NCBI RefSeq assembly: GCF_964355755.1
Contig: NC_092679.1
Location: 17,963,432 to 18,027,431, forward strand
Source of the DNA: Antedon mediterranea
Taxonomy: Eukaryota > Animalia > Echinodermata
Direction: 5' to 3'
DNA: 64,000 bases
Position numbers and translations under genes: made by a program. The first letter of the stretch is position 1. Each line of letters begins with the position of its first letter. The notes beneath the pieces are model-generated. The model saw nothing but the letters and a program-made list of their open reading frames with translations, ran no database searches and was not told the origin of the DNA. Positions 2,891 to 54,401 of the stretch are shown in pieces.

Positions 2891-5800
2891 CTTGAGCATG
2901 TTAACGAGATCCATATTTGGCTCTACCGGTGGTTTTATATGCGTTAAACGCATCAGCTCCTCAAACGTAACCGTCAGTTGGGCCATCTTGCGGAAGTTAA
3001 TTTGCGATTTCTCCGTTTTGTCTGGTAGAGCTGTGTGTAATAGTACTAAATCTTTTAAATGTACCCCTGGTAAAAATTAAAAAGTTTTTATCATGAAAAA
3101 TGATTTTGTTTTGGACAATCTCTTATTATCATCATCTGGTAAAGAGCATTACAGGATATATAAATGTCAATCAAAATTTGATCTTAATCATGCCATGAAA
3201 ATATTTTTAATGATTTATAAAAATTTAAAAATTAAAGTAACTCACCTCTGTAGTAATAGTTACCACATATGAAGATTTGGGGAAAAAAGAAAAAAAATTA
3301 CAATTAAAATATGAAAAAAAATTACCATTGACAAACAATGCCATGGTCTATGCATTGCTATTTATCACATACTGACATTGCCAAATTGTCACCTCACATT
3401 GTGTCACTGACACACATTGCACACTATTATATAAAACGATGTTAAATATTAAAATGAAAATCAGGTTCTTTCCTTCTTTCCATTCATGCCTATGCGCACA
3501 TGTTGTTAGTATTACTGTATAGTTTATTTATCAATAACGTATACACAACACGTTGTAGTTCCATAATACATTGTTGGTATCAGGTTTATATTTGTTATTA
3601 ACGTTGACTTGGGGTGGGATGGAATTGTGATATAAGCCCATCTTCTTGAAATTGGAATTGTGTTGGAAGACCTGTTATCAGGTGATTCTGTTAACATTAA
3701 TACAGGTAATTAGCAAATGGCAAAAGAAGTAAGTTTATTTTTATTAACAAATGACAGGTAGCAAAAGGTGTATGTGGATAGTCTGTTTTTAGTGATATAG
3801 GATGCAAATTATAGGGTGGAATGGAATGCAATACAACATTGTACCATATTGAAACAGTTATAAGCCCCATGCTCTTAAAATTGGAATTGTGACAAGTATG
3901 TGTTTTACTCAATGGCCAAAATGATATGGAGTTAAGCTCTGTCTACACTATCAACCTTTATGTGACCAAAAAATGTGATGAGCCCATGACACGATGACAT
4001 CACATCACTTCCATATTAGGGCACATCACACTTTTTTTGTAAAACTAGTTTGATAGTGCAGACAGAGCTTTATCTTTTTGGTGAAGCACTTTTAAGATAA
4101 ATGATTTTAATTTTATCTACAATAAAACTTAATGATGACGTTCAACTAGAAACTCAAAACCAAGAAATCTAACCTCTACAGAATTGTTTATCCAGCCTTA
4201 ATCATTTGATTTACAAATTAAATTTGCAGGCAGAACTTTCTTATTCTATTGCAATAACATATGTAGAAAATACTGAGAAAAACTAATAAGTGTTAGACAT
4301 CACTTGTTAAGCTGTATATGTGTGGAGAAAGTCACCTGTATCAGACGACAGTCATCCACGATTAGCTGGGCCTCTCTACGACACACACCTGTGTCAAATA
4401 CCTGTATTTTGGGCATGCCAAAATACAAACTTGAACTTTTTTGGGGTAGGGGGAGATGTCCTTATGCAGACTGCCTTATGTCCTTTTTATAAGTCTATCT
4501 AAATTCACAGTCAAGTTATCACAATTCATTTTTTCCAAAAAACCATGTCATCAAAACCATTTTTCACTATACTTATATACTATATTTGGCAGGGAGTGAA
4601 GGGGAGGAGGTGGGTGGTGTGAGAGAAAGCAATCTCTATTTTTCTACAAACTACTTGGTATATTTGTATCACTGTGTGTCTGAATACTTACAGAATTGGA
4701 ATTTTGAAACCCTTGGCCTCGTTAAGTGCTTTTCTGTAATTGCTAAAATTAGAAGTTGACGATAACAATTCTGTCATCTCTGTAATAATCTAGACAAGAT
4801 AAAAATAGAGTAATCATCATATATAAGATCCAATGGAAAACAATACATTAGAACGTCTATTATGAGGGATACTTTCAGGATCCAACAAAGTGTAGGGGTG
4901 TCTCTTCAAAAGGTGAAGGGTGTCTCTTCCTGTCATTATTTTCATTGGAATGTATCCCTTTAATAGGGATGTCCCTAAATAGGGGTGTCCCCTGAGTAGG
5001 GATGTCCCTGAACAGGGTTGTCACATGAACAGGGTTGTCCCATGAATAGGGGTGTGATCCCTGAATAGGGGTGTCCCAAAGGAATGGTTCTACTATAAGT
5101 AAAAACTATCGAGTACTCAGTATCCTTTTGTTTTACTGAAATTTATTTCTTGGAAATATCTAACTAGTGTGCATAGGCCTAATAGATGCCAATGACAATC
5201 ATCTAGTGGAACATCTACTGGGGAAATATTGTAATTGTCAACACCCTATTATATGCAGAGGAGACACTAATGAGACACTTTGTAGGGAACCAAAGGTGCC
5301 CTCTTAATAGGGGTTCTAGTGTAAATTAACAAGGATTAAAGAGTAACCTGCATATGCATTAGTACAGAAGAAGGTCCACACCCCCATACCCCTGAAACTC
5401 ACCACCAACCATAAGAAAAACTATTTTATATAAAAAATTTCAATAATGGAGAAATATAAAACAAATTCTCAGATGACTAAGGTGAACCACCTTTATTGCC
5501 TTGCAAAGCTTCCCAATTTGTTTTAAATCTTATATTCAGTCCATCTAAATCCGCTGGAATGTCATAAATTTAACTGTTGCATTATATTTTTGAAAACAGG
5601 TATAACAACTTGATGAAATATGTATTCATATGAATATATAGTGGAAATAATAGTTCTAGATGGATAATGATAATTCTAAAAATATTTAACTTTTTCAAAA
5701 ATAAGTCCATGAATAATTTTGTAAATAATATTATTATTTTTAGGTTTGTGCAATTTATATTTTTGCTTTCTATTGAGTGTCCTTCGATAATTTTGTAAAC

Positions 5801-8800: not shown

Positions 8801-11800
8801 CTCTAGTCTATTAAGTGGACACCCTCAGGACCCACCAAAGTGTCCCCTCTGAATACGAGTTAATTTAACCAAATTTACCCTGGTTTTTTTCACAGGAAAG
8901 CGTCCCCTGATTAGGGACGTCCCAAATGAGGGGTCGTACTGTGTAAAGTTCTGTCTATACTATCAAACTAGTTTGACAAAAAAAAAGTATGATGCGCTCA
9001 AATATGGTAGTGATATGCTCATATTTGGTAGTGAGCATAGGTGTTTATATATCGGCACATCACATTTTTTGTCACATAGAGTTTGATAGTTTAGACAGAG
9101 CTTGAGATGAACAATCTCAATAATCGTTCTACATTCTAACTACAATTAACACTCAACATATAAAAAATTGATGACCTCGGCTGAGTCTATGGATTTAACT
9201 AATAATTAATAATAATTATGATAAACGGCATCTGTCTAGTTATTTACAGTTTGTAATCATGACCGGAAAACTTGCAATTGTGGATAGAATTTGCGAGATC
9301 CTACAAGGATCAGCGATCTCACGTCACATGACGTCACAACCACACCTTGGGTAAACGAACACTGTCATATTGCGTGATACAAGCATACCGTGGTCAGGAA
9401 ACAGTTAAAGGTCACGGATCTTGCTAGTTGTACTATCAGTAACAAATCCCTGAATAAATTGCCTTTTATCAGGTATGCAATACGCGGTTTCACGCTTCAG
9501 TGTACAGGTTTAGACTCGATTGCCAGGTGCTTTGCATTACCTGGGGATTTCAGTTAAAACACAGCCAACTACGTATATTACGTTGATAATAATAATAATA
9601 ATAATAATAATAATTGATGTGTTTGGTTAGAATTTAACCTTTTTCATATAACTAGTATGATATACATTTATAATAATTAGATTTAAACTGTTTGACTTTT
9701 GTGAATTTCAATCAGTTTCTGAATTAATAAAAAATAATTGATGACGAAAGTGGTTATCATTTGAAGTAATAGATAACAATATACCTACGTTCCTTATATT
9801 AGATAAATATATAAAATTGTTATTTTGTATATTGTATTAAGCTAGTTTGACAAAAAAAGTGTGGCCGCCAAAATATGGAATCATTGTGTCCATATATGGA
9901 CACATCACAACATAAAATTTGATAGTGTAGACAGAGTTTAAAAGAGGGTTCTAACAAAAACCAGACTGCTTTAAGAAAGGCTGATACCAAATCGATGGAT
10001 TGAAATGACACATTATTATAATGATACACAAAATCCTGATTTAAGAAAAATCTGATAGCACATCAGATTTGAATAAAAAATTACATTTTAAATAGATTAT
10101 TCTAAAATCATAATTCGTATTAATTAGTCCCATATGGTTGACTTATAAATATTCATGAGCGATTAGAAAAGAAGAAGTAAAATCTATTCAAGACTACTTC
10201 AAATTTTCAACTTTAATAGGGTCAACAAGAATTTCCACTACAATTGTAAATACATTTATTTTAGAGAGTATATAAGAAAAATGCAGATGGATTATTAATA
10301 ATAATAATATTTATTTGGTCACCAATGAAAAATAATCAGGATTGAATGTGTTTAAACATGGGAGTAAAGTCACAAATTATGTATGTTTTGTATGCAAATC
10401 CAAAGGCAAATTAATAAAAAAATGTCAATGCTGTGGGTATCAGTGGCTGGATCGCAATGGAGATACAAAAAAAAATCACATGATAAAGCAGACAGAAAAG
10501 TTAGCAGAGCTTTCGGGCAACACTGGTCCTTCATCAGTGTTTTGTATACATATACATTTTCTAAATACAGATTTAAAGTAGTGTGAGGAGTAACAGTAAG
10601 CGAGAAAACCGTTTAGCTTGTCCCACATTGAATCTGTATCTATCATGAGCAAGTTTTCCACTCAAACATCGTTTTCTATGTACTATATATTTAAATTACA
10701 AATGTTGCTATTGTATGTATAGTAAATTAGATGTATAAATCAATAAATGTTATCATGAAAATATATCTAATCTTATACAAATCTTTAATTACAAAAAAAC
10801 ATGTATGAAAAATTGATCACCTTAAGGATATGAACCTGTGACTTTTATTAATAGGGCAAGTGACTAATCTCTTTAACCTTTTTATGATTAAACAGGTCAG
10901 ATATTTTATCGTGTAGTGTATATATGACATTTAACATGAAACATAAGCAGATTTATTACATGATGAACACATGATAAACATTCACCTACTGTACATGATT
11001 TGAACATGTGACCTCTTACTTTTAGGACAGGTGACTAATCTCATAGACCATCATTATGCAGGATATACAGTCTAGATACACTTTATCAGGCATATATTTT
11101 TGTATACATATCGAAAAGCGAGCAACTCTCCAATTACGGGATAGATAAACTTTTTTTATAATTATTGTGATTTAATCCTCTAGTCTTATTAGAGGCTTAG
11201 GAAGTAGTTAAAAGTTTTCACTAGGTTAGAATTGAACTCTGGACATTGAGATTGAAGACAAACATGTTAACCACCAAGCTACAGCTCCACTGTACAACTC
11301 CTATTGACGACCTAACAACATTTTTTATTCACCCTACATGAATCGAACCTCTGACCTTCTGCTTTACAGGACAAGTGACTAATCTAATAGACATCTTTAT
11401 GATTAAGCAGGTTAAGAAGACCAGATACATTTCATTTAAGAAAATGAGGCAATTGACAACATAACAACATTTTGATGACTGATAAATTTCACACTACATA
11501 TGGTTCGGACTGCTGACCTTTTGCTTACAGGACAAGTGACTAACCGCTAGACCACTTTTGGATTGAGCAGTTTATGCATTATATTTTGCAATACTGTATA
11601 TAATACTATTAGGAAAACATAAGTACTGTATTGCGATATTTATTTAATTACCTATAAATGATAAAAGATGGTATATTGAATTTAAATCCTTTATATTAAC
11701 AATAAACAAAAACAAACAAATTTCTTTTACAATTTAAAATGATTTCAAAACTGTATAAAAATTCATCTAAAGTATTTTCAAACAAACAAGCATTTATATT

Positions 11801-14800
11801 TGTTTATTGAAAATATCAGCTTTAAAATGCCTATTCAATTAAGCCTGTTCTAAATCATACAAAACGCTGACGTCACTGACACAGGCCGATATGTTATAAT
11901 GACGTTGATTTCCAACAAAGTGTTGCAACAAATAATATTGTAGATATTCAAAAAAGAAAATACATGAAAAAAACGAAAATGCAGTGATAAGATTGAATAC
12001 AGACGTATTACTATATAATATAGACAATGCCTATCAACAAAAACAGATATGTTTTGTAACCATGTTAAAGGGCCAACTGAAACATGTTTTACGCTCTATA
12101 TATATTTGTATGCTGTTTGATGTTGTTGAATTAAATTGAATTGTCTTTCTCTAGATAAAAAAACGGCAATAAAACCTACTTACAATATGATGAATGAATA
12201 AAATTTTTAAAAAATTTATTTCATCAAATGCCATACAAATAATACAGAGCATAAAAAAGGACCAACCTAGAAGTAAGCTTATCTCAGTTGGCCCTTTAAT
12301 AATAATAATTAATTGAATTTAATAAATTACCATAAGACCGAGTAGGCCAAATGATTACAAATTTGTCAAAAATTAGGGTATTGGATTATATACTCAGATC
12401 ACATTAACATTGGATTTACCAAATCCTTGTGTCTAAATTTAGCCTAAATTTGTGGGTGGGACTATAATCAACCATGGGATTATACTCGGTCACATACAGT
12501 ATATTAAAAATAAACTTTATAAATATAGAAACTAGAGGTATACTTACAACTGCTACATTGACAAATTTCTCCATGACCTCTGCCCTTTGCTTTGGCGTGT
12601 GTCGACTTAGTACCATACATTGAATCCACATGGATAATCCATTGAATAGGCCAACCGAACGTTCCAACTTTACGTTATCCTTCAGCTGACCGCTCAGGGC
12701 ATAGCTTTTAAAATCGCCAAACTAAAACAATAAAGACAAGGCGGATTAACATTAATATGAATATAGCACATAGGTGAAAAAAAAGGTTGAAATAGTGGGA
12801 AGAAGGTATAGAAAATAGACTCACATATGAGATGTTCCTATTCCCAAATAATTGACAAATAAAAAGCTTTTCAGTATTTGAGTATTTTTCAGTAAAGTCA
12901 CAATGGAAAATAGGAAATCCAAATTTCTCATTTACAACAAATTATATTTGTTTTTAATTAATAGCATGTTTAATCAACAAATTTTAATTTCAATATTTGT
13001 AATTTGTATAGTGCAATTACACAGTGACAATACATTTCATTGTAGCTTTGGTGAAATGGAGAACAGAAAAAAAAACATGTTATTATATGTTACTTGTATA
13101 GTTTTGAGTTTCTCCATGCCTAGAATATATATATATATATGTATACATATGTCGTATATATAAATCCAAAGGCAAATTACTGAAAAAAATGACAATGCTG
13201 TGGGTATCAGTGGCTGGATCTCAATGGAGATACAAAAATAAAAAGCAAAAAGCTAAATCAAAACGATAAAGTAAACATATATATAATATACATAAATGAG
13301 AAAATCTATGCTTGGAAAATGTATATATATATCCGTATAAATATGTCGTATATATAATATATATATAAATGAGAATAATCTATGCTTGGAAAATGTATAT
13401 ATACAAATGTCGTATATATAAAAATATACACAAATGAGAAAATAGCTCAGAACCAAAACAAAGGGAATACTTTATTTTACGTAGTTTTGTGCAACTGTAT
13501 CTTTAAAAAAGGTTTAAAGGTCAACGATTCAGATTAACCAATCAACATTCTTGAGTACATACTCAATGTTTTATATTATCCAATCAAAATACATAATGGT
13601 TCTCATCCAAGTCATTATGTTATTGATAGCATCTATATTTGGCAACTATCTATCTTGAATATATTTTTAGATTTAATTGGTAACATCTGACCTAAAATAT
13701 ATAATAATAGATTAAGTTTGCGAGTAGTAAGTCCCTGCAGCTCTAATTCCTCTTTTATTTTTAATTCAAATAAAAAAAGAAATTTATTTTTACCATTAAA
13801 AACAATAAAGCAAAATGAATAGGTAGTTTAGAATCTAAGCTTGACTCAACTACCAACAAGTGATAGCACATACTCTATATAAGTTTTTATGGCGAGCTAA
13901 TTACGCGGAGTGTGGAGCTACTACCTCAGAGTAGGATTATATGAGTGAGGGCTATTTCTCAGGGAGGACTTATATATGTGTGAGCTATTCCTAAGGGTGG
14001 ACTTATACATGAGTGTGGGCTACTCCTCAGGGTGGACTTAACACGAGTGTGGGCTATTCCTCAAGGTAAACTTATACATGAGTATGGGCTATTGCTCAGG
14101 GTGGACTTATACATGAGTGTGCAGTGATGTACAGCCACAAGAAATAAAGTGGTTCGGTTTTCGCAAGAAAAGGGAAACACCTCTGTTAAGCCACTGGGTT
14201 GTCAAATGCATCTGTGAAAAAGTGGTCACTGAAACCTTCCCAACCATACTGGTGGCTACAGCCCTGGTGTGGGCTATTCCTCAGGGTGGACTTATACATG
14301 AGTGTGGGCTATTCCTCAGGGTAGACTTATACATGACTGTGGGCTATTCCTCAGGGTGGACTTATACATGAGTGTGGGCTAGTCCTCAGGGTGGACTTAT
14401 ACATGAGTGTGGGCTATTCCTCAGGGTGGACTTATACATGAGTGTGGGCTATTCCTCAGGGTGGACTTATACATGAGTGTGGGCTATTCCTCAGGGTGGA
14501 CTTATACATGAGTGTGGGCTATTCCTCAGGGTGGACTTATACATGAGTGTGGGCTATTCCTCAGGGTAGACTTATACGCAAGTATGGGCTATTCCGCAAG
14601 GTGGACTTATACATGACTGTGGGCTATTCCTCAGGGTGGACTTATACATGACTGTGGGCTATTCCTCAGGGTGGACTTATACATGAGTGTGGGCTATTCC
14701 TCAGGGTGGACTTATACATGAGTGTGGGCTATTCCTCAGGGTGGACTTATACATGAGTGTGGGCTATTCCTCAGGGTGGACTTATACATGAGTGTAGGCT

Positions 14801-17800
14801 AATACCTCCGAGGATAAACCTATACATTAATAGAGTAGTACTAGTTTATGTTACATTAATGAATTCAATTATTTCCATTGAATAAATATTTATGTTTTTA
14901 TTTCCTATCCGTATAAAAAATCTGTGAAATTAATTACCACTTTTTTAATTCAATCAACTATATTGTAAAAATATATTTTAGATATTAAACTAAATAATTT
15001 TAAAATATCTTGAAAAATTTTCTTATAAAATTTTAATTATTACGATTGTTACAGATATTTTACTTATTTTGGAACCTGATCAATCCAGTACAAAATGGCT
15101 ATAATTGAATAAACATCAGAAGTGATAAAATTTATTATTAATTAACAAGCTATTTTCAAACATGTTTTTACAGCATTCGCCACAATCCAAGTATACGCTG
15201 ATCTGAAGCTGAACTTGGCAATCATGTTCTCGAAGGTGATCAGTCACGCGTGAAGTGTGATCGTTTAATTAAATGCACGCTGAAGAGAACCGACATGTAC
15301 TTAAGAGTCTGCAAACACTTTAAGTGACTGCCATTGTTAAGTCGAGGAATTACGATGCATTGTTATTTTCATCTTGGATTGCGAAACGGAAATAATAACA
15401 GTAATAATAATAATAATTTATAAATAGAGGAAAAATGAGCGCTATAAAAATAGAGAGAGATTATAATATTATACAAATAATGAATGTTTATTAGTCTAAA
15501 TGTAATAGTAGTTCAAACATATCCATATTAGATAGATCATGTATGATTCCACCAAACTTTCTAGGTTAAAATCACGATTGTGAGGCATTTGATAAATAGG
15601 CAAACTGCCTTAAAATATCATGTTTCGAGAAAATAATATCCATACTAGAGCAAAAATCTGTCAAGAAATACATTTTGAATTCTGTGGCTCAAATTATGTA
15701 TGTCTCCTATAGATAGTGGGTCACATACAATGTTTTAAAATCGAAGGTTCTTTGTACGAAATACATTCAATTATGAAATGCAGATGCATTTTATTCTTCA
15801 AATACTTTCAGAAAAACTGAATGTAATACATATACACATAAATCCATATCTGTATTGAACATGCATAACACGTACTAATCACTACTCTGTATGTACACTT
15901 ACATTTAAACGCCGAAATACTTTGTACTCAAGAAAAGTAAGATGATCGGCTAATTCTGTTGGCTCTAAATGATTGAAGACTAAAGATACTTTTCGGTTCC
16001 TTCCACGGAGAGGGTTCCGTACAGATACAACACGCATCCAGTCATATGATGGTCTAAAGAAGTCAGAAATTTTAATTTTACTGGATTAGAAAGTGAGATG
16101 GTACAAGCGATGAAATTAGATGTATCCACCTTTTAGCATCATTCTCACTTAATGGACTCAATGCAAGAACATAAAGGAAGTTGACCAATCACAACACGAT
16201 GGATCATCTGAACTGTCGCTTGTGATTGGTCAATTCACTTGCATTGTGCCTACATCATTGCATTGAGTCCAAGTGGGAAACGTACTTATAGAGTACAAGT
16301 TACCTATGTTGCACTGTGTATACCTTTACTTTTATTTTCTGTGGGACATATAACTTTCATGGGAAGATTTTATTTCTCACCTCACACAAACATTCGGAAT
16401 CACATTCATGTTAACAAACAAGAATGTTTACTTTAAATACTTACAAATTAGAAACATCGACAATAGTTATAAGTTGTGAATTTCCATCTGCGTGTAGGAG
16501 TGTTTGAAATTCTTGCAGTACACCATATAATTTCTTGTCTAAATCAAAATGAACAGGCCAGTTCATTATCCAATACCTGAAGAACAGAATATCATAGTGT
16601 TCTAGTACGTGTTATGTTTGCAGGTTTTAAGGCTATTAAAGTCATTATGTGAAAAAGATTGAAATCACTAATTTCATTTTATTAAAAAGTAGCTTTATTG
16701 TGACAAGGATTGAGAAAAGAGGCCAAAGGCTTCTGTCATCGATTAAGGATTTATAATAAATAATTATTCCAACTTTCACATAAAAATGAAATTTCTGTAG
16801 CTGGTGTGAAGAACAACTTGTTGCCTGATTTTTGCTCCCAAAATTTGGTACATAATTTGGTAATAATTATTGGTCGAAAAATGAAAAATAAAGTTAATGA
16901 CACAAATGTTTTTTCTTCAAGATAGAAACATAAACAGCTTTTATAGATAAAACTCCAATAATAATGGTTAGTTAAATGGTACCCAACTTGTGTGATCTAT
17001 TGAAAGTTTTTGCAAAAACAACACACCACTATAAACATGTTACAAATGTACCTTTATTTTTATATATAATATATATATACATATAAAACAGAGAATTATA
17101 ATAAAAGTGGGACGACCTCACACAAGACAAAAAAAAATTTTTCCACAAACAATTTTTTTTACGCACTATTTTAATCAGGTAGTGCGAATATAACAACCCA
17201 TTATTTTCCTCAAAATCTCATTTTAATATCTTATGTAGAACTTCAGTGTTGGTTTCTGGTTAATACTTTTTCTAGGGAAAATCCACACCCATTGCTTAAG
17301 AGATTACCATAAATTGATGTAGAAGATAGAAGTATAAGTACTGTATTTAAATATTATTTAATTTAATCTTATCAAGGATAACTTGATAAAATTAAGTAGA
17401 TATATATAGAATAGATATGAATATTCCATATCAATTAATGTTTTAATTAATAAATATGAGTATCTATAAAATATAATTAACTATGCTAATTACTTTTATT
17501 ATTGAATTTGAAAGAGAAGTTAATAAAAAATGTATATTTAATATATATCATCGATGAATCTAGAAAACAAAGTTTGGATGGTGAAGAGCAGGAGAACACC
17601 TTTGACCAAGACGCCAAGGGGAGAAAATTAACATTTTTATCCTATATATATAAGAGCATGTATCAGATTTAGTTGTATAACTTACAAAATGCAAAAGTTA
17701 CAAAAGATTGGCTAATAAATAATTAGTATAAAGCAGTTTCAGTTTTCCAGGGCACTATTGGAAAAACCTTGCACCAGTGAGGAGTCATAAATGCATGCTT

Positions 17801-20800
17801 TACAAAATTTCACATATTCACTTTCTCCTTTTTGCTTTTTTTTATTCTAAATTTGATAGTGCCCTTGCAAAATATTTTTTTCAGTACAGCCCTTTCAATA
17901 ACATTAATCATTGCATGATGTCATAATTTGATTATATTAATTAATTTACACAAAGTAGACAATAGCAATAGAATGAATGAAACGAATCTATTTATGGACT
18001 ATTTTGTTCTATGAATATATGCATGCATGTTTTACAATAGAAAAAACTGATCAGAAAATAATTTGTCATCAATTAGGTCGAGACTAGAGTCATTGAAATG
18101 AATACAGATTATCCCATTAGCAAACTACTTCCATTTGATTAACCTATTACGATCAATCTCCAACTTCTAATATTATCGACCATGCTGCAGTAGTTTAAAA
18201 AACGAGGTATGTGTATATTATGTATGTTATGTAATAAGGCAGATTGAATGTAATATTGATTTAGATAAAAACTAAATCTTAGCAAATAATTTTTATTATG
18301 ATATTTTATACAATAACATAATAATGAGTAAAATAGGTTTTTTTTGTTATGTCTGATGTAGTGCATTTCATTTAGTATGACAGGCCTATGTAAACTAAAC
18401 ATATAACAAGATGCAATGGAAATCCTGAACACAGAAAGCTTGTAAATTAAAATCTCACATACTAAACGGGACATTTTGTAAACTCCCAAAATCACTCGGC
18501 TTTTATAAACGTTTATTAGAAAATAACACAATGTATTTGTTACATTTTTCACCCCTAGCTATTCTTTCATTTAATAAATTATCTAGATCTGTATTTTCCA
18601 AAAATGATTGATTTAACCAAAAAAACAAAAATATTGGCGTTTATTTTTAAATAGTGCAATTTTTTTGTTACAATTTTTTCCTTGATTTAAAACAAAATAT
18701 TAGATTTTATAAACCCAGTGTTTACTAATAAATAACACCATTTTTGTTTTTACATTTTCCCCCTTGATTTAAACAAAAATATCGGCTTTTATAAACGTTT
18801 ATTAGTAAATAACACAATTTATTTGTTACATTTTTCACCCTATCGTTGAAATGATTACACGATAACAACCATTCAACATTCATTCTGAACCTTACCTTTT
18901 GTGTATCCCCTCTAATACAGCAGACATATATAGAGTTTGAACAATACCATGAAAGCCCCAGTGGTCTAATGGTTAGGAAATCTGCATATCAAGCAGAAGG
19001 TTCCAGGTTCGAATCCTGGTTTGGGGGACTTTTTCTAATTCTCACAGATTTCCTCATCTTTATCATTCGAAATTAATTAATTAAATTTCAGTATATCACC
19101 GGGCGGTTTAGAATTACTGTTCTATGCCTAATGTGTTATCTGATGAAGGGCTAGTGTTGCCCGAAAGCTCTGCTAACTTTTCTGGATGTTTTACTTATCG
19201 TTTTGATTTAGCCTTTTGCTTTTTTTTTGTATCTCCATTGAGATCCAGCCACTGATACCCACAACATTGTCATTTTTTCAGTAATTTGCCTTTGGATTTA
19301 TATATAAATTAATAATATATTATGTATAATTAAACTAATATGTATATATAAATTATAGTAGTTTATACCTGATAGCATGACATATCCTTCTTCTGTAGCT
19401 AAAAGCCTGACAATCTTCAAACGTTGCATTGTGCATACATGTTGACTTGTTACACTGACTTTTATTGCTGCATTGATACGTAAGAAAGATTAAAGAAAAG
19501 ACAAACAAAATACTGATAAGTTTGAAATATTAATATCATACCATAACGCTCTGTTTTAAAGGCTTTATTTCATCATAGGTTATAATCGCACATTTTTTAG
19601 AAATTTTTTAATTTGTTTTATAAAACACTAGTATTACACATTATGAACAAAACCAACATTCCTCTTTTTGTCAGCCTTAACCATTATTAGATTAAAAACA
19701 AAAATTGTACTTTTTTATCAGGCGGCTTAGAATTTGTTCTGTGTGTTGGTTTATATGTAAAAGTATTGTATCTCTTCGGAGATCTCACTGCATAAATAAA
19801 TATACTGAAAGATGCGGCCGGTTTAGAATTTCTTCTGTGCCTGTTGATTTGTGAAAAAAAAAACTGATATAATCAATTTCATTTAAGGTTTTGGGTGCCG
19901 CTATAAGTTACTGCATTATTTTATAATATTTCAAGATATTATTTTCCAAAATGAAAATTAAGACACGGATAGGAGACTTTCATTTAAAATACTCTATAGG
20001 CAGCATATGTTAGTTCTTTTGAGCACACCAACAACACTGTGCAACAGCAAATCTATAGTAATTTCAATTTAATTAAATTCTAACTAAAACTACTTTTATC
20101 AAATATCTCTGAAAGCTAGATTACATATATCACAACAACACGTGTACTAATGGTTTTTACTCGGGGGCTTAAATAGAAAATAATACATTTATATTTCATT
20201 TTCACAAACTTCTCAGAATATCTGATCGATATGTGGGTGGTGTGAATTTCAATTGTCGGTAATAGATCTAAAATTTAGATTAATAAAAGGTATTTTGAAT
20301 TTGATCTAAAACATTATAAATGTACATACTCGTACCCTAAACTGACTGTAGGATCTTGAGGACGAAACAAGTTTTTCATTAAATTTATCATTTTAAAAAT
20401 CAAACAACTATTTACATACTGTACCTAAAGAGAAAAAAAAGTGATAGTGAATGTCTAAATATGGTAATGATATGACATCATCATCATGTCCAAATATGGT
20501 AATGATATGACATCATCATCATGTCCAAATATGGTAATGATATGACATCATCATCATGTCCAAATATGGTAATGATATGACATCATCATCATGTCCATTA
20601 TATGGTAATGATATGACATTATCATCATGTCCAAATATGGTAATGATATGACATCATCATCATGTCCAAATATGGTACAGTAATGATATGACATCATCAT
20701 CATGTCCATTATATGGTAATGATATGACATCATCATCATGTCCATTATATGGGCAAATGTGATGTGACCATATATGGACACGATGCATGTTATATCACTA

Positions 20801-23800
20801 CCATAATTGGGCACATCACACTTTTTTGTCAAACTAGTTTGATAATGTCAACAGAGCTTTACAGATGAGTTATATACCATACCATCATTTTGAACACAAA
20901 GATGGGATGGCCTTATTATATATATTATATAGTACATCAGAATGGACTTAACCCAAGCACTGAAATCAAATGGCTCATTTTGCATAAAAATTATCAAAAT
21001 TAAATGAACCCACAACTTCCAGATCACTATAGTCTGGCGTTCCTACCTCTAGAGCACCGAGCTTGCGCTGATGGCTAGGGGTTAGATTCGAGCCCAAGTA
21101 AGTAGCGGGTACTGCCCAACAGTATTGACTCAATACCATGATGCAAAACTACTTTACAGTAGCAGGAACGGATTTAAGTGGGTGCTAAACAGGCTTTAGG
21201 CCCCCCCTAAAATTGTACTTTTTTAAATAAAATAATCACTATTTTTATTTTTCTGCATCCTGACGGATGGTTTTATCATTTATGAAATATTTAGCGCCCC
21301 ACCCCCCCTAATCTATAATGCTGGATCCGCCTCTGAGTAGTTACAAACAATTACAATTTCAAAAAGGATATAGATGAAGAAACTGAGTAGCAAGTTCTTC
21401 TGATAGCATAAACCACTCATGCATTAAAAAAAGTACACGTGGGAATGACGATTCCTCGATAACTTGCCCTGCGTCATCTGAAAAATACAACAAAATAAAA
21501 CAAATTAAGTGATAGGACTGTCCGACTTTTTTACAAATTGATAAATAAAATTGAAATCAGACTGGTTAAAATCAACATCACATCCTGTTGCCACCTTCTT
21601 TTGCTTTCAATTTTTTATTATACAGAAATATTTTCGAATAGAAATGTTGACATTCTTTGATTCTCTGATGACATTTTTGATTTGTACATTACATTTTCTT
21701 TTTTCAAACCTTCGTTTCATTGTTATTGATTGTTTCTATCTTTTGTGCTTTTCAAGGAAATAAATGTTTATTTTTATTTGATACATACAGTAGAAATAAA
21801 ACAAATTACCTAAACCCAAAGACTTGATATTATTAAGCATTATTTCAAGAATGTCGTTGAATATATAATTTGAAATTTGTCCTGATTTCTTGCTAAATTG
21901 GGGGTAATTTATTCACATAGTTATTAACAAGCTATTATTAATTATTCCCAGCAGAAACAGGTTATAAATTAATGTAGTGAGAGAATGAGGATAAACTTAT
22001 GTCAGATAAAACAAGATTAAACAATGTGCTACAATTTCAGACTTTAAAGCCAAACTCACCAAACATTTGATCTCAAAATATTAAATTGTTTATATTGTTT
22101 ATTCAATGCAGCTTATTCTTTATTGGTGTATTTCATTATAACTTTGTTTTGTTTTTAATTATTTTGTACTACTTAGTTTTGTTATTTTTGTATTGTATAA
22201 TAATGATGGAGTAAGAACAGTTTTCCTGTTTGGGCTCATGCCTTTTACTTGCTCCTACCAAATAAATATTATTAATATTATAGATAGATGAATATCGAGT
22301 ACGGTTTTTTTTTTCTACACTATCAAAAAAATTTGATGTGCCCATATATGGACATGATGATGTCATCACTACACCATATTTGGGCATATCACTTCTATAT
22401 TTGGGCACATCACATTTTTTGTTGTCAAACTAGTTTGATAGTGTAGACAGATGAAATTTTTAAATGAACATAAACACCTGAACAGCCATTGCTTATGTTG
22501 CGTACAGTATGTGTCAACCATACATAATCAATCTATGGTGATACTATATTGTATGAATGCGCACTCATGTTAACATCGCCAAACCTCTTTATCAATCTAA
22601 CCAGCAATCATCCATTAATTCATTTGACCTCACTAATCTAATCTAAGCATTTTTTCTGTAAACACTAACCATGCTACAGTAGTATTACAATGTTACATTT
22701 GACTTCACTAATCTAATCTAAGCATTTTTTCTGTAAACACTAACCATGCTACAGTAGTATTACAATGGGCCTGTTTCTGCTGCAACTGCTCAAAATACGG
22801 TATAAAAATACGGTATAAAATACGGTATTTTTTATACCGTATTTTTTAGTACCCCGTTTCTGCTAACAATACTTCTTGGGTGGTCGTGTTAAATTTCATC
22901 TTTTTTACCCAAATTGCCATTCATTTATTTGATCGATAACTAAAAGTCGCAATAAAGGAAGTTTTACGTCTCACTTTCAACAGCCGAGCCCTAGTGATAG
23001 AGATGTTGTGAGAGCACAGAAAACATCGTAATGGGGACAATTAATTCGTTCCCTCCCCGAGTTATTGTATTTTGCAATGCTGTACTGCTTTCGCAGGCTC
23101 TTCAGCTTTGAGTTTACTTGCTTTGGAGACAAGTCTATTCCATACTCCTGCTTTATTTTTTTAGAAATGTCTTTATAAATGTGGTTGTCCCTTTTATTAC
23201 CTTTTAGTTGGCCAGACATTTTAGCTTCCCCACACAAATTTATTTAGTAAAACTGTTACGTCTTCGCTCCACATTTTCGTCGAATATATATACACGTGTG
23301 TAAAACAGCTGACAGCGACAGAAAATAAAAACATGAATGTTGACCTTTTGTCATGTAAAAAAAAAATACTTTTTTATTGGCAGCAGAAACGGGTACAAAA
23401 AATACGGTATAAATTTGTAAATACCGTATTTTATCCACAAATTTTGTGGGGAAAATACGGTATACAAAATACGGTATATTTTTTATGAGCGCAGTTTCTG
23501 CTGCCAAAAATATACCGTATATATATGGTATTCAAAAAATACCGTATAATATACGGTATTTAGTTGGCAGCAGAAACAGGGCCAATGTTACATTTGACTT
23601 CACTAATCTAATCTAAGCATTTTTTCTGTAAACACTAACCGTGCTACAGTAGTATTACAATGTTACATACATGAAAAGAAATCAATACAATTATTAGGCT
23701 ATTTTAAGAACCCACATAAAATGTTGAGAAGCTCATGTAAATAATAAACAGTTTGTCATCGACAACGGGGGCAATGGGCTTATGATTATCCCACGAATTT

Positions 23801-28071: not shown

Positions 28072-28272
28072 CAGGGTATTGCTAAACACCCCGCAAACCC
28101 CCGCAAACCTCCAAAAAAACATAGCAAACCCAATCGAACCAACATTTTTTTACATGGATATACCCAGTGGGTTGTACACTACATGATTCAATCACTTTCA
28201 TGTTGGTTCGATGGGGTTTGCTATGTTTTTTTGGAGGTTTGCGGGGGTTTGCGGGGTGTTTAGCAATACATG
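28072..28272. mobile_element. 201-bp foldback MITE with ~70-bp arms and 5-bp TSD
   Basis: Arms 28076-28145 / 28200-28269 are near-perfect inverted repeats; TACAA on both flanks. Confidence 0.9.
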
Positions 28273-30339: not shown

Positions 30340-30510
30340 ATATAAATCCAAAGGAAAATTACTGAAAATGACAATGCTGTGGATGTCAGTGGCTGGATCT
30401 CAATGGAGATACAAAATAAAATAAGTAAAAGACTAAATCAAAACGATAAAGTAAAACAGCCAGTCACTGAGATCCAGGCACTGATACCCACAGCATTGTC
30501 ATTTTTTCAT
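30340..30510. mobile_element. Two inverted tail fragments of the hammerhead-bearing SINE
   Basis: 30340-30462 in minus orientation, followed by TGAGATCCAGGCACTGATACCCACAGCATTGTCATTTTTTCA in plus orientation. Confidence 0.75.
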
Positions 30511-30780
30511 TTAATTTAATTTTTTATTTATTCATTTAATATGGTAATACTGCCACAGTTTCAATTGTGTTTTACTACAGGTCTTGTTTAATATGCGAAA
30601 TAAATGAAATCGAAACTTTTCCCTGAAACCAGACTCTGAAAACCGGAAATTCTCAAAAGGAGAATTTGTTACGGTCCAATGGTTCCAAATTTGCTTTTAT
30701 AATTAAAATTCTGATTATAACCAGATTGTGGATAAACAGACAAATTTGCCAAGATTATGGACAAGATCAAGGGTGTCTAA

Positions 30781-32214: not shown

Positions 32215-34289
32215 TAGCAAAATATTTGTATTAATTCCAGTTTCAACGATAATAGTTTATAGCTTTAGCTTGCTAGCATGTTCTCTACTCACTGTTAGCC
32301 ACCACATAAATGAGGAGAAACTGGCATTTAACAGATCTGATAGTGGTCGTCTCGTGACGATGAAGCAATTAGTTCAACTGAGCTGTTATAAGAGCTGCTT
32401 ATACTATTGTACAGGTATGCTGTATGTCTGTTTCAGCTTCCCGGATTTAACTTTGTCACTCTATACTTCTTTAATTCCTTTAGTAAATATTATACGACCG
32501 CTTTATTTACATGTCGTCCCTGTGGTTTGTTAAATTATTATAATCTTGTATAGTAATTAATTTCAATTATTGATGATGTAAATGTTGATGTACATTTCAT
32601 AAATCAGTACTGTATTATCATAATCATTGTTATTATTATTATTATTAGTTAAATGCGCGGCAATGTTATTTTGATAAAATATACAATATAGTTATTAATT
32701 ATTAATTTAAAGATGTTTTGTCCCCCAAAAAACATGAAAATTAATATTAATAAATCAAACTTTGAATAGGCAATTTCATAGTTTTAATAGTTAGGTAATC
32801 ATTTCCCATAAAAAAAAACAGAAAAAAAAATGTTTTTTATTTATAAAAAGCCAAAATAAACAGTAAAATTCAACCAAAAACCAATTTTCTGACAGACAAT
32901 TGAACAATTTTTTGCTTTAAATACATTTTTTTTTAGGTAAACATTTTTTTGATCAAATTTTTTGTCAAAGTGAATAACAAACATTAAAATTACATATTCA
33001 AAAAATTTTAGAAAAATATATTCAATGGTATTAAATATTAAAATATTAGTAAATTGCTTTGTTTTGTACAAGCCTACACAATTTACAAACATTTATGACT
33101 TTAACTTATTAATATATTTTATAAAAAAAGTCATCAATCAATTTCCTTTAAATTAAAAAACATAATTAAATTTATTGTCAACGTGAATGAAAAACAATCT
33201 TTATACTAATGAAGAATAGGTAACAGGTCAAGAATTAAAAATATATTATGATTGTGTCATGTTTAAAGTAGTTGATCACAATGTTCACACACAGTGTTAT
33301 TTGCCAAGTGAAAATACTAATTAAACAAGTAAACATCGTCTTGATTTATCTAAATACAGACTACCTCAATAACAATATTTGACTGATTCTCAAGAGGGCA
33401 GTAATCACTGTATATATTATGTGTATGATCATACTTGTTTTAGATGGTATAGAATGTTGTAGTAAGTATAGGTGCTCAAAATACATTCTACTTATTAACA
33501 ATTTATTAATTCAGACTCGTTTCACCAATGAGTATATTTCCAGAGACAACCCCCAGCTGAAATGAATACAGCATATAGTAGCATCGAGTTAATATTACTA
33601 TATGAGTTAATAGTCCCCTGTCTTAAATTTCTTCTACATAAATCTAAAGCTCTGTCTACACTATCAAACTAGTGTGACAAAATAGGGTTTTAAGGCTGTA
33701 ATATTAATCTTTTCAACCCTCATTCATTTCACAGGAAAGTTTTTCCTTAAACCGCTAGTCCTCTAGGATAAGCTCACTCATAAACTTTCCACAACTTCAC
33801 AGGACTGTAGGTTGGTAAGGTTTCAAACCTGAATATTCACAGAGGCTTTTGATAACCCAGTGACTTGAAAACAATTGTTTAAACTTTCTTGCAAAAACTG
33901 CACCACTTTATTTCTTGTGGATACATCACTGCTTCAGTATGCTATTCACCTTGTGTACTCTTAAAGTGGGATTCTGGGTTTAAAATTGCTTTTAAATATC
34001 GTTTATTTATTAAATAAAAAATATTATAACAATATAGACATGTCAGAATGAAGAAGTAATAACGAGAAATTAAACAAATTAAATTTCATATACATTTTAG
34101 GGTAAATTCATGGAAAGTCTGTTTTTCAGCAGCTTAGGGAAGCTCATTAATATTCATGAGATATTCACAAAATCACGTCATCAGTGGATTCCAAACTCGC
34201 GACGTCAAGCTTGTACGTTGTGTTCTCTCTCCCCTGTCAAACGACGACCACCTGATCATTGTGAAATACATTTTTTGTAGATTTTCTAA

Positions 34290-39074: not shown

Positions 39075-40615
39075 TTACTAACATTTTTTGTCCACGATTC
39101 CCACAGCTTATACAGTAAGAATGTAAACATTTACCACAGTATCCTTCTATTCAAACCATACAGTTTCTCTTCACTATATAAAAAAATAACTTCTCTTCAA
39201 TTAGCTAAAATGGTACATGCCGCTCTTTGTGAAATTGTTCTCAAAATCTCTTTGGATGATGTTTTCCAACTCTTCCATCTAAAATACACTATCTTATTAT
39301 AGTACATTTGCTACACTCATTCGATTTTATTTATATTACATGCTTGAATTAATTTATTTATTTATTTTATTTAATCGAAACCAACAGCGATAATTACCGC
39401 CACTAACAGGTTTTGATACAAACAAAGCCAGGACTGTTTAAAGCACCTTGATTGGTCCTAACATTGATCAAGGGCTTCTATCGTCCAGTGCCCACCTTGG
39501 GTAGTATACACTGACTTGGAATTAGTATGGGATTTTTTTTTTCTGATCGGTTTCAATTAATCTTTCCTCCACCTGCACACACTTTTACTATGAGAAGCAG
39601 TCATATAGAAAACCGGAAAAAATACTTAAGTAATAAATTGGCTTAAATACACTTGAACATGTCAACGTGTGTTTGCATAATTGGGTAATACTATAGGAGT
39701 AGAGACAATTTTAATTAATAATTATAATGCCACTTTATTAAGTACTAAAAAAACAATTGCTGTCTATTTTTATTCAATTTTTTTTTTGTCAATTTATTCC
39801 TTTTTTTTTAATACAATTGAAATATTAAACTTTAAAGTATGTAACAATTAACTGTGTATAAATTATTATTATTATAAATTAATAAACGTTTTTTAAACTG
39901 TAAAAGTGTACTTTTGGCATTGCACTACATTTAAGTAGAACTCAGAGTGGTGCAAACAACCCTCTTGTTTTAATTATTTCATTTTCTATCAAAAATTATA
40001 AATATAAATATATCTTGAGTGTAAAAGCTGTCTTGTGCGCAGTGAATATTTTCGCAAATGTAGGATTTAGAATTTATCAAATGGTAATTAATAAAAAGCG
40101 CAATGCAATTTTTGTTAAATCTTACTCCAAATCCAGATTATTCGATGTGGTAAAATGGCTAATCAAAAATGTTTAATGAACCTGTTTCCTAAGTCTGTAT
40201 AATGGAGAAATCAGTTTAACACTGTATTAGTTCTATAGGCCCAACTGGAAAATCAGAGTGAACCCAATAATTTGTTTTACCCTTGAAATATATACATTTT
40301 TAGTAAGAATCTTATGCTTTTAATACTCTGAATATATTATGAAAGCAATTGGTACATTTACAGTCTAATTTGAATCCGTTGACCTGGAAACAATTTCAGA
40401 TTTGGAGGAAATTAGAAATTGATGAGCTTTGCGAGTAATACCTGCTCATCTAGGATTCAGCTGTAGAAATCGTTCACCAATCAACATACAGTACCTACAA
40501 GGATACATATATTTTAGATTGTTTCTCGCTTTTTTTTTTATCGATGACTTTAGTACAATAATACAATATTATGCTCAAACCACTTTCGACTTCACCAAAA
40601 AATACAATTATTTAA

Positions 40616-40903
40616 AGATATATTGTCCCCGCAAAACATGAAAAATTAATAAAATCAGACTTTAAATAGGCTATTTTGCAGTTTTAATAAAGTCATTCAC
40701 TTCTATAAAAAAAATTAAAAAAAATAATGATTTCACTTATAAAAAGACAAAAGAAAGATTTAATTTTTGTTTTGAATTACATTTTTTTCAGGTAAATATT
40801 TTTTTTTAATCCAGTTTTTATTCAAAGTGGATAACTATTATGTGACATAAAAATTGCATATTCAACATTTTTTTAAATATTTGTTCAAGGGGACAATACA
40901 TCT
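40616..40903. mobile_element. Kolobok-like MITE copy
   Basis: TTAA|AGATATATTGTCCCC...GGGGACAATACATCT|TTAA. Confidence 0.82.
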
Positions 40904-41249
40904 TTAAATAACAATTGGGCGGTGAATGATGTATTAACAATGCTACAGTAGTGAATATGATTATGACAGTAATTCTGGACTACCATTCCATTTTTCTCTT
41001 CAAGCCAACATTTCCACCTAAACTATTGGCATAACATTTTTCCATGTCAAAGCTTTAGTAATAAACCTAAAGTAGAAATATTCTTTGATAACTGTTTTAA
41101 ATACTGGTCACTAATTAGACACAATTCAACTAGTACTTGAGCCAGGAATAGAAATTTGATGACTGTACCCTTTGTATGTAGGTGTACTGTACAGTATTTA
41201 CATCCGGGTCCATAAAACATTTGCCTTTCAAGTGTTGCCCAAGAATATA

Positions 41250-42668: not shown

Positions 42669-45643
42669 AACAGGATACTTTAATCAAATTGAACTTCCTG
42701 CATGAAAAACAAATGTTTTTCTCTCAGATATACTTTAAATAGCAAAACAATCTCCTGTCATTATTGCCCAACCACTTTCAATATTCTCTTTGTTCTTTTA
42801 TTGGAATTTAATTTTTTAAACCATGCAATCAATATTAATCTTCAATTACCACTTTTCATAATGTATACACTTTGTTCAAACAAAGTTTGTTTTTTTTTAA
42901 AGTACAGTAAAACAGTTTTTTAATATTCCCTAAATTAAATTTTTAAATCTAAAATTTTTTTAAATACATTTCTACAGTACATTTAAAATCATACTGTTCA
43001 TATGATTGATCAAACCACAGAGGTAATTCCTAAATGATTAAACCTATACAAAGTTATTGTATCATATTTTTATGCCAGTTTTCATTAATTATTTGAATCA
43101 TTTAATATTGTCATTTTTAATTTTTAAACACAAGTTTTTATCTATAGGTAAAAGCACAAAACAAAGGATTTTTTTTATTCCGTTTCAATATGAAAACATA
43201 TTTTGAAAGCAGATTTTCATTAAATCTGAAATTTATTCAAATTCATCTTTCATACAACATACGTAAACACAATACAAAATGTGTCAATTTAACTTTCAAA
43301 TAATTTGATAAAGTAAAGTTTTTACAAGTTCAAATATTGCAAAAATGAAAGTATTAAAATTATCAAAAACAAACACATTGCTACATACAATAAGAATCTT
43401 GACAAAGTAAATAAATTGCAATATCTAAAAAATGAAAAAAAAAAATGTATAGATTTTGTCTAGAGGGGTCAAAATGGGGTCAAAGAGTGGTCAAAAGGGG
43501 TAAAATTGGCTAGTGACAACATTGTCTAGTAGTAGAATCCGTTTGGGAAAGGCGTCAGAGAATTGATTAATTTTTAAAAAGACAATTAAAAGTAGCTAAA
43601 CAAGCACAATCTGCGCAAACCCAACCTATTTAACAACCCTGTCGCAGTACTGTACTGTAAATGTTCTTCTTTTTATGTTTTATTAAAGACAAACTCTACA
43701 GCTCAGTTTATAAATAATGTTAAATTTGTCACTTTCAAAGTAACTTTATGTTTAAAACCATGTTTGGTGGTAATGTTATTCACAGGTTTTTTTAGGAAAT
43801 AATATTTAGACTGGCTTTATTATTGATTGAGTGAGACTGGGTCAAACTGGGTAATGATGAGGATTTGTATTAGTATTTAACCTTTCATCTTTCAAACTCT
43901 CTCTAGTCTACAACCTTAATATATTTTACTCAACAGATAAGTAACATGGAAGAACTGTCAATTGGCTTTAAATGCCCATGGACATACCGGTACAGTAGCT
44001 GTGCTGGATTTTTTTTCCACCAAGTTCAAAGTTTATTTCTAGGCCTTTGGTCCAGTCATTTATTTTAACTTTATACAGTAGGCCATAGTATATCACCTAT
44101 AAAGTCTCATTTCACACTAATGTAAAGCTGCTTATTTTCAAAATATGCCTCAAACAGTTGGATATATGGAAGTTGTATTATTGGGTCTCAGACATATTTA
44201 ATCATTAAATATAATGATTTATTTAATTTATTTTTTTATTATATACTATACTAGTATTATTTTACCAAATTATTTAAATCTCAGATAATTTTTTTTTTTT
44301 TTTATTTGAAACAAATTACATTGTGTTGGGATAAATGAAATACAATTTTAATTAAGGGAAGTGCTCATTTAAATATTTTTTTTAAAAAAACAAGATATTT
44401 GAAATTGTTGTGATGCATTTACAGTATTTACATTTTTTTGTCTGTAGAAAGACATTGGTCCCTACAGTGGTTATTTTAAAGGACTGGTTCCTTGTTACAT
44501 ATTGTACTGCCTAAACCATAGTAGCTTTGTTGTTATTAAAATACAGTATATTTACAATGATATTTATTCTTACTAAATGTACTCTGTAATGGAAATAAAG
44601 GTGAGTGTATCTCACAAGACAAAAAAAAACTGTCTAATCAGGGAGGTACAAAAATATACCTCCCTGGTGTAACAAAATTCAATAAAAAAATGTTTTTAAT
44701 ACCTATGAATCTTTTGAATGAATAAAGCATACTTACAATTAAAATTCAAAAGGTAGATGTGTCTACTAATCCAGGGACAATTAAAGAATACTAAAAATAA
44801 GTCAATGTCTGATCAGTCTCTACGTGGTTTAATGTGTAAAGATGAAAAAAGTTTACAGTATATTTAATATTTGAGGTATAGCTATTACAGGAAATGCCAA
44901 GGATGTAACTGACGTAAATTGGTTTAAGGTGTAAAGATGAAAATACAATAAGGTCTATAAGTATTAATACTAAGTAGATATAGCCTTAACCTGTCAATGT
45001 CTTTATAGCTAAACAGGAACTACCATACAGGATTTAAACAATGTGCCTTTAAGGTTTGAACAACAAAGAATACTTGACTTTAAAGATATCTATCTAGCCA
45101 ATCAAACCACAACAGTTGTTCTATTCAGTTGGTTTATTGATCATTCTTTAATTTTGTCTTATTAAAGTTAAGGAGCTCTCTGTTTAAGGATTTTTAAAAG
45201 TGTGGTATACACGATAATTAAGTTTAAACATTACATCATAGTTTTATTCAACTGTTGTACATTTCAAAATGATTGTGGAAATGTAACAACCACATTATCA
45301 AATGTGAAGATGACGGTCTGTGTATTTATAATTAATTATGTCACTATTATTATCAATTTTTTTTGCACAAAAACAAATATTACAAAATGGTGGCCCAATG
45401 GTCCAAAATGAATGTAACATAACAACCTATGTAACAATATAAATATCTCAATACTATACGTTGAATATAATAATTGATATTTTGGCTTAATAAGTGAAAG
45501 ATGGCTACATAAATTGTATTGTATTAATGTCTTGACTTGACTGTGGAAAGGATTTAACTTTGCTCTACCTCATCATAGTTCACCCCCCCCCCCCCCAACA
45601 CCAAACAACAACACCCAACAAATACCCACCACCATTAACATTG

Positions 45644-45802
45644 TAAAGCTCTGTCTACACTAACAAACAAAATAGTTTTGATGCGCCTAAATATGGTGAT
45701 ATATGGCCAAATATGGTAGTGATATGACATCATCATGTCCATATATTTAGGCACATCACATTGTTTTGTCACATCATGTTTGATATAGCAAACAGAGCTT
45801 TA
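45644..45802. mobile_element. AGCTCTGTCTACAC-TIR MITE copy
   Basis: TAAAGCTCTGTCTACAC...CAGAGCTTTA with the family core. Confidence 0.85.
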
Positions 45803-46447
45803 CGACAGAAACTAAGTGGCCTGGTTGGCAAACCAATGATGCGCAGTATCAAGTTCATAGCATAGGCGGTTACAAAAATGAGTTCCTTTTTCAGAAATAG
45901 ACAATTAGTAACAAAGAATGTCCAAAATTGGCAGGAAATTTATAATTAATGTTTCCTTTCATACTCATTGTGAGGGAATAATGCTATAATACTGCATCCC
46001 TTATTCCAGACAGTTTTATATTGTACTGGTAGTCATTGTTTAAATACTGTTGAATATTTTTCAAAGAATGGCAAAAATATGTAAACAATGGCCAATATAA
46101 TATCTCAGCTACATCTTGCTTTACTTGGTGAGAGCTACCATCAACATTTTAATTGATTTATTTTTCAAACAAATGTGAACAAAATGGATAAAAATTGTAA
46201 ATATAGTTTAATTTAATAATCAGACTAATCTCAATATATTGCAAATGCTTGAAACTGCCATTAACTGTTGAATAAATGTTTACAAAAGAGGAGTATGATA
46301 GGCCTACCAGGTGTTCAACAAATTCAGGAAATGTGTTTATACCATAGTATTGTCTGTCTCAGTTAGAGGAGGCATGGAGTGGGCTACTTATTATTTTCTG
46401 AATACTGATGTTATAAATAACTAAGCTACAGCAAACATGTTTAATTA

Positions 46448-48680: not shown

Positions 48681-48918
48681 GTAAGAAGTGGTATAAATGG
48701 TGCCAGTGAAATCAGCTTATCAGTTAAATTGTGTGTAAACACTGCCTTAACAGATATGACGTATCGTTATCTCTTGATTATGACCTGTGGTATGCAAGGA
48801 AACACTAACGGAACAAGTTCGGCACACCTACAAAACCACTGTTTTCTTTCCATATGGACGGATATATAGCAGTAAGCCTATATTAGTAGATTCCATTTCA
48901 AGGTTTACCTGTTTAAAA

Positions 48919-54223: not shown

Positions 54224-54361
54224 CTGTCTACTCTATCAAACTAATTTGACAAAGAAAGTGTGATGTGCCCAAATATGGTAGTGATATGACATCATCGTGT
54301 CCATATATCAGCACATCACATTTTTCTGTCACATAAAGTTTGATAGTGTAGATAGTGCTTA
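54224..54361. mobile_element. AGCTCTGTCTACAC-TIR MITE copy abutting the conserved 3' UTR of SELENOW copy A
   Basis: Family TIRs and core. Homology between the two SELENOW 3' UTRs stops at 54366. Confidence 0.85.
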
Positions 54362-54401
54362 AGGCATGAAGCTAATGGCGATGACCTAATTCAACCAAAC
54401 T

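Follow-up and report, generated by a model that had tools for sequence, protein, structure and literature searches.

A tRNA-headed repeat beside a Penelope-type minimal hammerhead in the crinoid Antedon mediterranea: a probable one-off junction of two high-copy families

Penelope-like elements (PLEs) carry minimal hammerhead ribozymes marked by an extra base after A9, a G10.1-C11.1 pair and a palindrome replacing stem III, and most of these motifs, according to the available text of the same study, are single and tied to truncated PLEs (PMC4209133). A head-to-head layout of insertions is known for PLEs (PMC3846280, PMC8557442), and the promoter of a rotifer pLTR is laid out as TATATATA-20 bp-TCACT, where TCACT is an initiator-like motif (PMC3846280). 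The purified Poseidon protein was reported to cut AT-rich DNA and to start reverse transcription internally, ribozyme cleavage not being needed (PMC11167929). The combination of a tRNA with a type I hammerhead in a short stretch, which is also the arrangement of the locus considered here, is described for SM-alpha and non-LTR retrozymes (PMC4918200, PMC7229834, PMC8490949, bioRxiv 10.64898/2026.07.22.740005), and mobilisation of retrozymes by PLEs has been both proposed (PMC7229834) and argued (bioRxiv 10.64898/2026.07.22.740005). Small-RNA-derived LTR elements, the topic of PMC10886601, have, as far as the available text goes, no bearing on crinoid repeats. Our literature search retrieved no paper that describes the crinoid repeats treated below or a SINE of tRNA origin ending in a Penelope tail; such entries may exist in Repbase or in supplementary files.

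The locus lies in a window of 64,000 bases (GC ~30%) from the crinoid Antedon mediterranea, where a first-pass annotation had described a single SINE with a tRNA head and a Penelope-type hammerhead tail. Our analysis points to a different structure, probably two distinct high-copy repeats that met once, one SINE-like (18933-19137) and the other likely a solo pLTR stub (19140-19305). The tRNA-like head itself was recovered at 18955-19027 on the forward strand by Rfam (tRNA, 44.2 bits, E 4e-6), with A-box and B-box motifs and the anticodon ATC assigned by ARAGORN; 18 of 21 cloverleaf pairs are kept in the window copy and all 21 form with family-majority letters. The head may resemble eukaryotic tRNA-Arg. 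The start formerly placed at 18955 is right for the tRNA-like region but not for the repeat: contig depth jumps at 18933-18936, the window copy begins at 18933 with a remnant of a 5' leader (18933-18954, +), and the family continues for another 16-22 nt upstream that are missing in the window copy. Loose contig ends before 18933 agree across three runs (agreement 0.73-0.77), and the leader motif upstream of this position has no occurrence within the 64-kb window. Conserved sequence of the head family thus reaches at least 38 nt upstream of the tRNA, and the repeat does not begin at the tRNA start.

Directly after the tRNA-like region stands a Pol III terminator-like T5 run (19030-19034, +), present also in the loose-end consensus of run X6, followed by the body and 3' end of the family (19035-19139, +). 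Only 2 nt of the TA run are left in the window copy; other head copies proceed into (TA)n and then into unique flank. Two stretches near 19720-19850, earlier called middle-part fragments of the composite, are instead 3' ends of the head family, at 19717-19757 (+; a weak match alone, E 0.064) and 19813-19855 (+; E 0.002), neither with a hammerhead after it. Contigs of four runs indicate a dispersed, high-copy family with a simple-repeat 3' end. As in tRNA-derived SINEs (SINE2), a tRNA-like head with A and B boxes is joined to an unrelated body and a simple-repeat 3' end, copy number is high and 5'-truncated 3' fragments occur; unlike in SINE2, the tRNA is preceded by a conserved leader (38 nt or more) and followed at once by a T5 run. 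With these two features the family resembles a captured tRNA gene with its flanks more than a textbook SINE head.

The second part of the locus opens with a minimal type I hammerhead core at 19140-19170 (+), which reads CUGAUGA-A-GGGC/GCCC-GAAA-GCUC, confirming the core elements given in the first-pass annotation, and has its predicted cut after 19170. It agrees with the CUGANGA, GAAA and NUH requirements, has an extra A after A9, a G10.1-C11.1 pair and a stem II of 4 bp, and carries a palindromic AGCU in place of stem III (15.2-16.2 position), so that a stem III could form in a dimer; the constrained active dimer has an energy of -18.9 kcal/mol vs. -22.1 for a non-active dimer fold. The suggestion that stem I would pair as NGCA/UGCN applies to the family and not to this copy. 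In contigs of other copies that extend to 19140, the core is preceded by ...TCACTTGCA, which gives a family stem I of GCA/UGC, 3 bp long. In the window copy GUGUUAU lies opposite UGCUAAC, no pairing is possible between the two, and stem I is absent. The 19140 copy is therefore predicted not to cleave, and intact family copies are predicted to cleave only as dimers, through AGCU/AGCU. A descriptor of the core with a 4-bp stem II matched once in the window, where 300 shuffles gave 0.087 sites on average, so that the motif by itself exceeds chance only modestly; the repetition of the motif, together with the family-wide stem I, indicates that the hammerhead is real. No Rfam hammerhead family matched at E up to 1. 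Some Rfam miRNA matches were rejected, as they lay within tandem or AT-rich repeats and scored below gathering thresholds.

The core is followed by a T-rich tail (19171-19305, +) with T4-T9 runs throughout, ending in GGATT(TA)n. Further copies confirm those previously reported. A stand-alone hammerhead unit at 10394-10537 (-) has no head and is bounded by a 10-bp target-site duplication (TSD); the copy shares 79% identity over 169 columns with the main one and was missed by the descriptor because one stem II pair is broken (GGAC/GCCC). A 5'-truncated tail copy (13155-13275, -) sits in a TA run with a 9-bp TA-rich repeat on both sides, and two 5'-truncated tail copies form a head-to-head pair (30340-30463, -, and 30465-30531, +). 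The 3' end is common to all window copies whereas the 5' ends differ, and the targets are AT-rich, as seen in the TSD around 10394-10537 and the TA runs at 13275. The hammerhead unit, in short, is found both as a solitary insertion with a TSD and as a head-to-head pair. The tail motif had no matches in GTDB and none in viral contigs. Several contigs of all four runs hold a tandem duplication of ~63 nt of the tail (19220-19283), with a short GCTTA-type linker, and the duplicated segment ends in a splice-acceptor-like TTTTTTCAG.

The extra base after A9, the G10.1-C11.1 pair and the palindrome replacing stem III bear out the assignment to a Penelope-type minimal type I hammerhead. These features and the core itself are shared with the pLTR hammerheads of EN+ PLEs as described in the available part of PMC4209133, as are the occurrence of dispersed single copies and perhaps, at family level, the short stem I; the crinoid unit differs in its 4-bp stem II and in the lack of stem I at 19140. 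The family stem I of 3 bp is shorter than the 4-5 bp reported for PLE minimal hammerheads, and the 4-bp stem II is short against the 7-8 bp given for min-HHRs of schistosomes. With Penelope/Poseidon and Neptune insertions, as far as they are described in PMC3846280, PMC8557442 and PMC11167929, the unit has in common a fixed 3' end, a head-to-head 5'-truncated pair, a TSD of ~10 bp, AT/TA-rich targets and a start at an initiator-like TCACT. Unlike in those elements, no ATG or ORF start was seen in the crinoid tail. TA targeting would suit the Neptune clade. The tail layout is presumably also akin to Neptune ends. Judged from these sequence features, the hammerhead unit is likely a solo pLTR stub of a Penelope-like element. 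The window holds no PLE remnant detectable by tblastn with 120 PLE-like proteins (nothing at E<0.05), and an autonomous PLE sharing the tail, which the first-pass annotation led one to expect, did not emerge, no crinoid Penelope ORF with this tail being found in the window or in the 35 metagenome loci described below. A crinoid protein combining RT and GIY-YIG is available from Anneissia japonica (P0133) and is a relative of the PLE proteins of the metagenome loci.

These 35 loci (L001-L035) were obtained by a pattern scan of metagenomes for this core in combination with GCA/UGC and AGCU. No crinoid locus is among them, and none matches the crinoid head or tail (blastn, E<1e-3). The majority (28/35) represent one Penelope/Poseidon-type family of another marine animal. 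Several loci, L030-L032 among them, appear to be chance matches to prokaryotic sequence. The hammerhead adjoins RT/GIY-YIG-type ORFs in four of the 35, lying ~55 nt before the ORF start in L011, after the C-terminus of the PLE ORF in L015 and L016, and inverted beside the RT in L007. When loci of the 28-member family were compared with the reference L001, leaving out three cut by contig ends, 17 of the 24 with at least 45 nt upstream diverged from it within 5-15 nt of stem I, some loci being the same site resampled. The divergence point falls ~25-35 nt after TATAAAA, the distance at which transcription would be expected to begin. In L024 (110-1382) and L034 (37-2501) the hammerhead is followed by a charged ORF of 325-326 aa with no Pfam match, an arrangement repeated in tandem at 1355 bp in L034; this ORF is possibly the first one of a PLE-related element.

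The linkage of head and hammerhead across copies was followed in Logan contigs. Four of 24 listed runs were used on 18860-19400 (6139, 16339, 12673, and 2453 contigs), runs X1 and X3 being one sample, and the junction was examined on 19085-19200 in four runs (1130 + 2236 + 43 + 6 = 3415 contigs). Contig depth rises ~10,000-fold between ~18933 and 19310, with summed values in X1 of ~1e5-7e5 inside the repeat vs. 10-20 on the flanks. Depth shows a high copy number of both parts and permits no count, as short contigs overlap. The complete joint tables of the 3415 contigs hold no joint from head to hammerhead across 19137-19140. Two of the 30 longest pieces listed cross the junction, neither with the bridging 31 letters on both sides. 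The first (58 nt) is identical to the window and of single-copy depth, and is the window locus itself; the second (84 nt, 8 gaps), from run X5 (organism B), is also of single-copy depth, and because X5 covers the 3' flank of the locus it may represent the orthologous site. In X1, (TA)n follows 19137 in the 51 contigs that exit the head, and ...TCACTTGCA precedes the core in the 80 that enter the hammerhead, both groups with a median loose length of 255 and an agreement of ~0.52, which marks the flanks as unrelated. Hammerhead copies begin at the initiator-like TCACT after unrelated flanks, and at least 90 nt of upstream sequence without a head is present in 14 of 26 hammerhead-side pieces listed. 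In the low-depth run X14, none of six records was linked and two had non-TA letters before TCACTTGC. A piece spanning both parts was absent among the 32 longest listed on 18860-19400. Within the window, a head is present for one of two hammerheads and a hammerhead for one of three head 3' ends. The two families have separate ends in readable copies, and the claim that head and tail form one linked SINE unit fails for every copy that can be read through. The further claim of a SINE family mobilised by Penelope machinery is thereby left unsupported, with the reservation that in X3 and X5 most head-exiting contigs end within the TA run (median 17-19 letters), so that young copies with long TA tracts are unread.

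We therefore consider the one-off junction the best explanation of the locus. Under such a scenario, Penelope RNA would start at the initiator-like TCACT just before stem I, and the Penelope reverse transcriptase, acting where GIY-YIG has cut AT-rich DNA, would start internally, ~130 nt downstream of the ribozyme. Copying back to the RNA 5' end would then yield stubs of 175 bp, one of which, ~10 nt short, may have been inserted in the TA tail of a SINE or have joined SINE RNA by a template jump. The whole composite is flanked by the 7-bp repeat ATATATA and, as this duplication is itself a TA run, nested insertion and template jump are indistinguishable. Some observations speak against a one-off junction. 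The summed depth of head and hammerhead stands at ~1:1 to 1:3 in all four runs (221k vs. 260k in X1), as linkage would give, although depth is not copy number; the junction-crossing piece of X5 is a further point, as are the conserved leader and the T5 run, untypical of a simple SINE, the short stem II, the X3 and X5 contigs that end within the TA run, and the failure to find an attached crinoid Penelope ORF or, in the window, a PLE remnant.

Part of these observations would find a place in a single master element of the form leader-tRNA-body-(TA)n-hammerhead-tail, either a tRNA-headed pLTR with a Pol III-type promoter or a SINE borrowing Penelope enzymes. Hammerhead-only copies would then result from 5' truncation, head-only copies from internal priming at (UA)n, and at the window locus the complete element would be preserved but for a short deletion. 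Other complete copies would escape detection, since contigs built from k-mers are interrupted by long TA runs, as those of X3 and X5 are. The depth ratio of head to hammerhead near 1:1, with the highest values in the tail, and the conserved leader upstream of the tRNA are in line with this, and the rotifer pLTR promoter mentioned above, in the part of PMC3846280 that describes it, offers a parallel layout. Nevertheless, we regard a single master as unlikely: besides the missing joint in 3415 contigs and the six unlinked records of X14, old diverged copies assemble across one part or the other and never across both, and upstream of TCACTTGCA the consensus departs from a clean TA repeat (agreement 0.52-0.53).

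A more restricted form of linkage, in which one template jump fused a SINE with a pLTR stub and Penelope enzymes copied the fusion a few times, would make the locus a member of a small chimeric subfamily. We hold this for improbable. The ATATATA around the composite would suit it, but a flanking repeat that is a TA run is uninformative; the gapped X5 piece might be a second member, but has single-copy depth and may be the orthologous site; and a Pol III transcript would be terminated at the T5, T9, and T6 runs, short of the tail. The least credible reading, to which we give very little weight, is a non-LTR retrozyme like Schistosoma SM-alpha, with tandem tRNA-hammerhead units that would be cleaved into monomers and closed into circles. 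Hammerhead repeats containing a tRNA are indeed known in schistosomes (PMC4918200, PMC8490949), and contigs that return from tail to core exist (19305 to 19140 in X3; 19190 to 19140 in X5). However, these tandem joints occur in single contigs only and there is no array at the locus; the copies are scattered single units, each ending in (TA)n followed by unique flank. In the available descriptions, SM-alpha and the retrozymes are built of a single repeating unit, often in tandem, whose ribozyme is canonical (PMC4918200, PMC8490949), unlike the crinoid copies, which are separate where readable and whose ribozyme is minimal.

The window also contains genes and other repeats. A glycoside hydrolase family 1 gene is located at 48784-50911 (+), its GH1 frame (48916-50250) having 100% identity with an Antedon mediterranea protein, and a RasGEF-domain exon at 12416-12718 (-). 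Decayed tRNA-like or SINE-head-like stretches, three or four in tandem, lie at 10990-11575 (-) and belong to a family distinct from the head at 18955. Two mutually unrelated 35-bp tandem arrays were found at 13908-14827 (~6+15 copies) and 20451-20752 (8 copies); related to the latter is a dispersed repeat family of 110-170 bp with at least eight copies (54218-54380, 3932-4072, 8945-9111, 9826-9941, 20755-20863, 22324-22451, 33621-33688, and 45642-45820). Long palindromes, possibly MITE-like, occur at 28076-28269, 23374-23577, and 40608-40911.

Should a hidden master exist after all, Penelope enzymes would have a SINE-like parasite, a kind of element of which our literature search showed none beyond SM-alpha and the retrozymes. 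With the locus read as a one-off junction, two undescribed-looking crinoid repeat families of known kinds are added, which in itself matters little, and a warning follows, namely that a tRNA head beside a Penelope hammerhead can be a nested insertion at a shared TA target. The 5' ends of the stubs pile up at an initiator-like site, which in the second animal lies ~25-35 nt past the TATA motif, and this suggests that solo hammerhead stubs were copied from the 5' end of the Penelope transcript.
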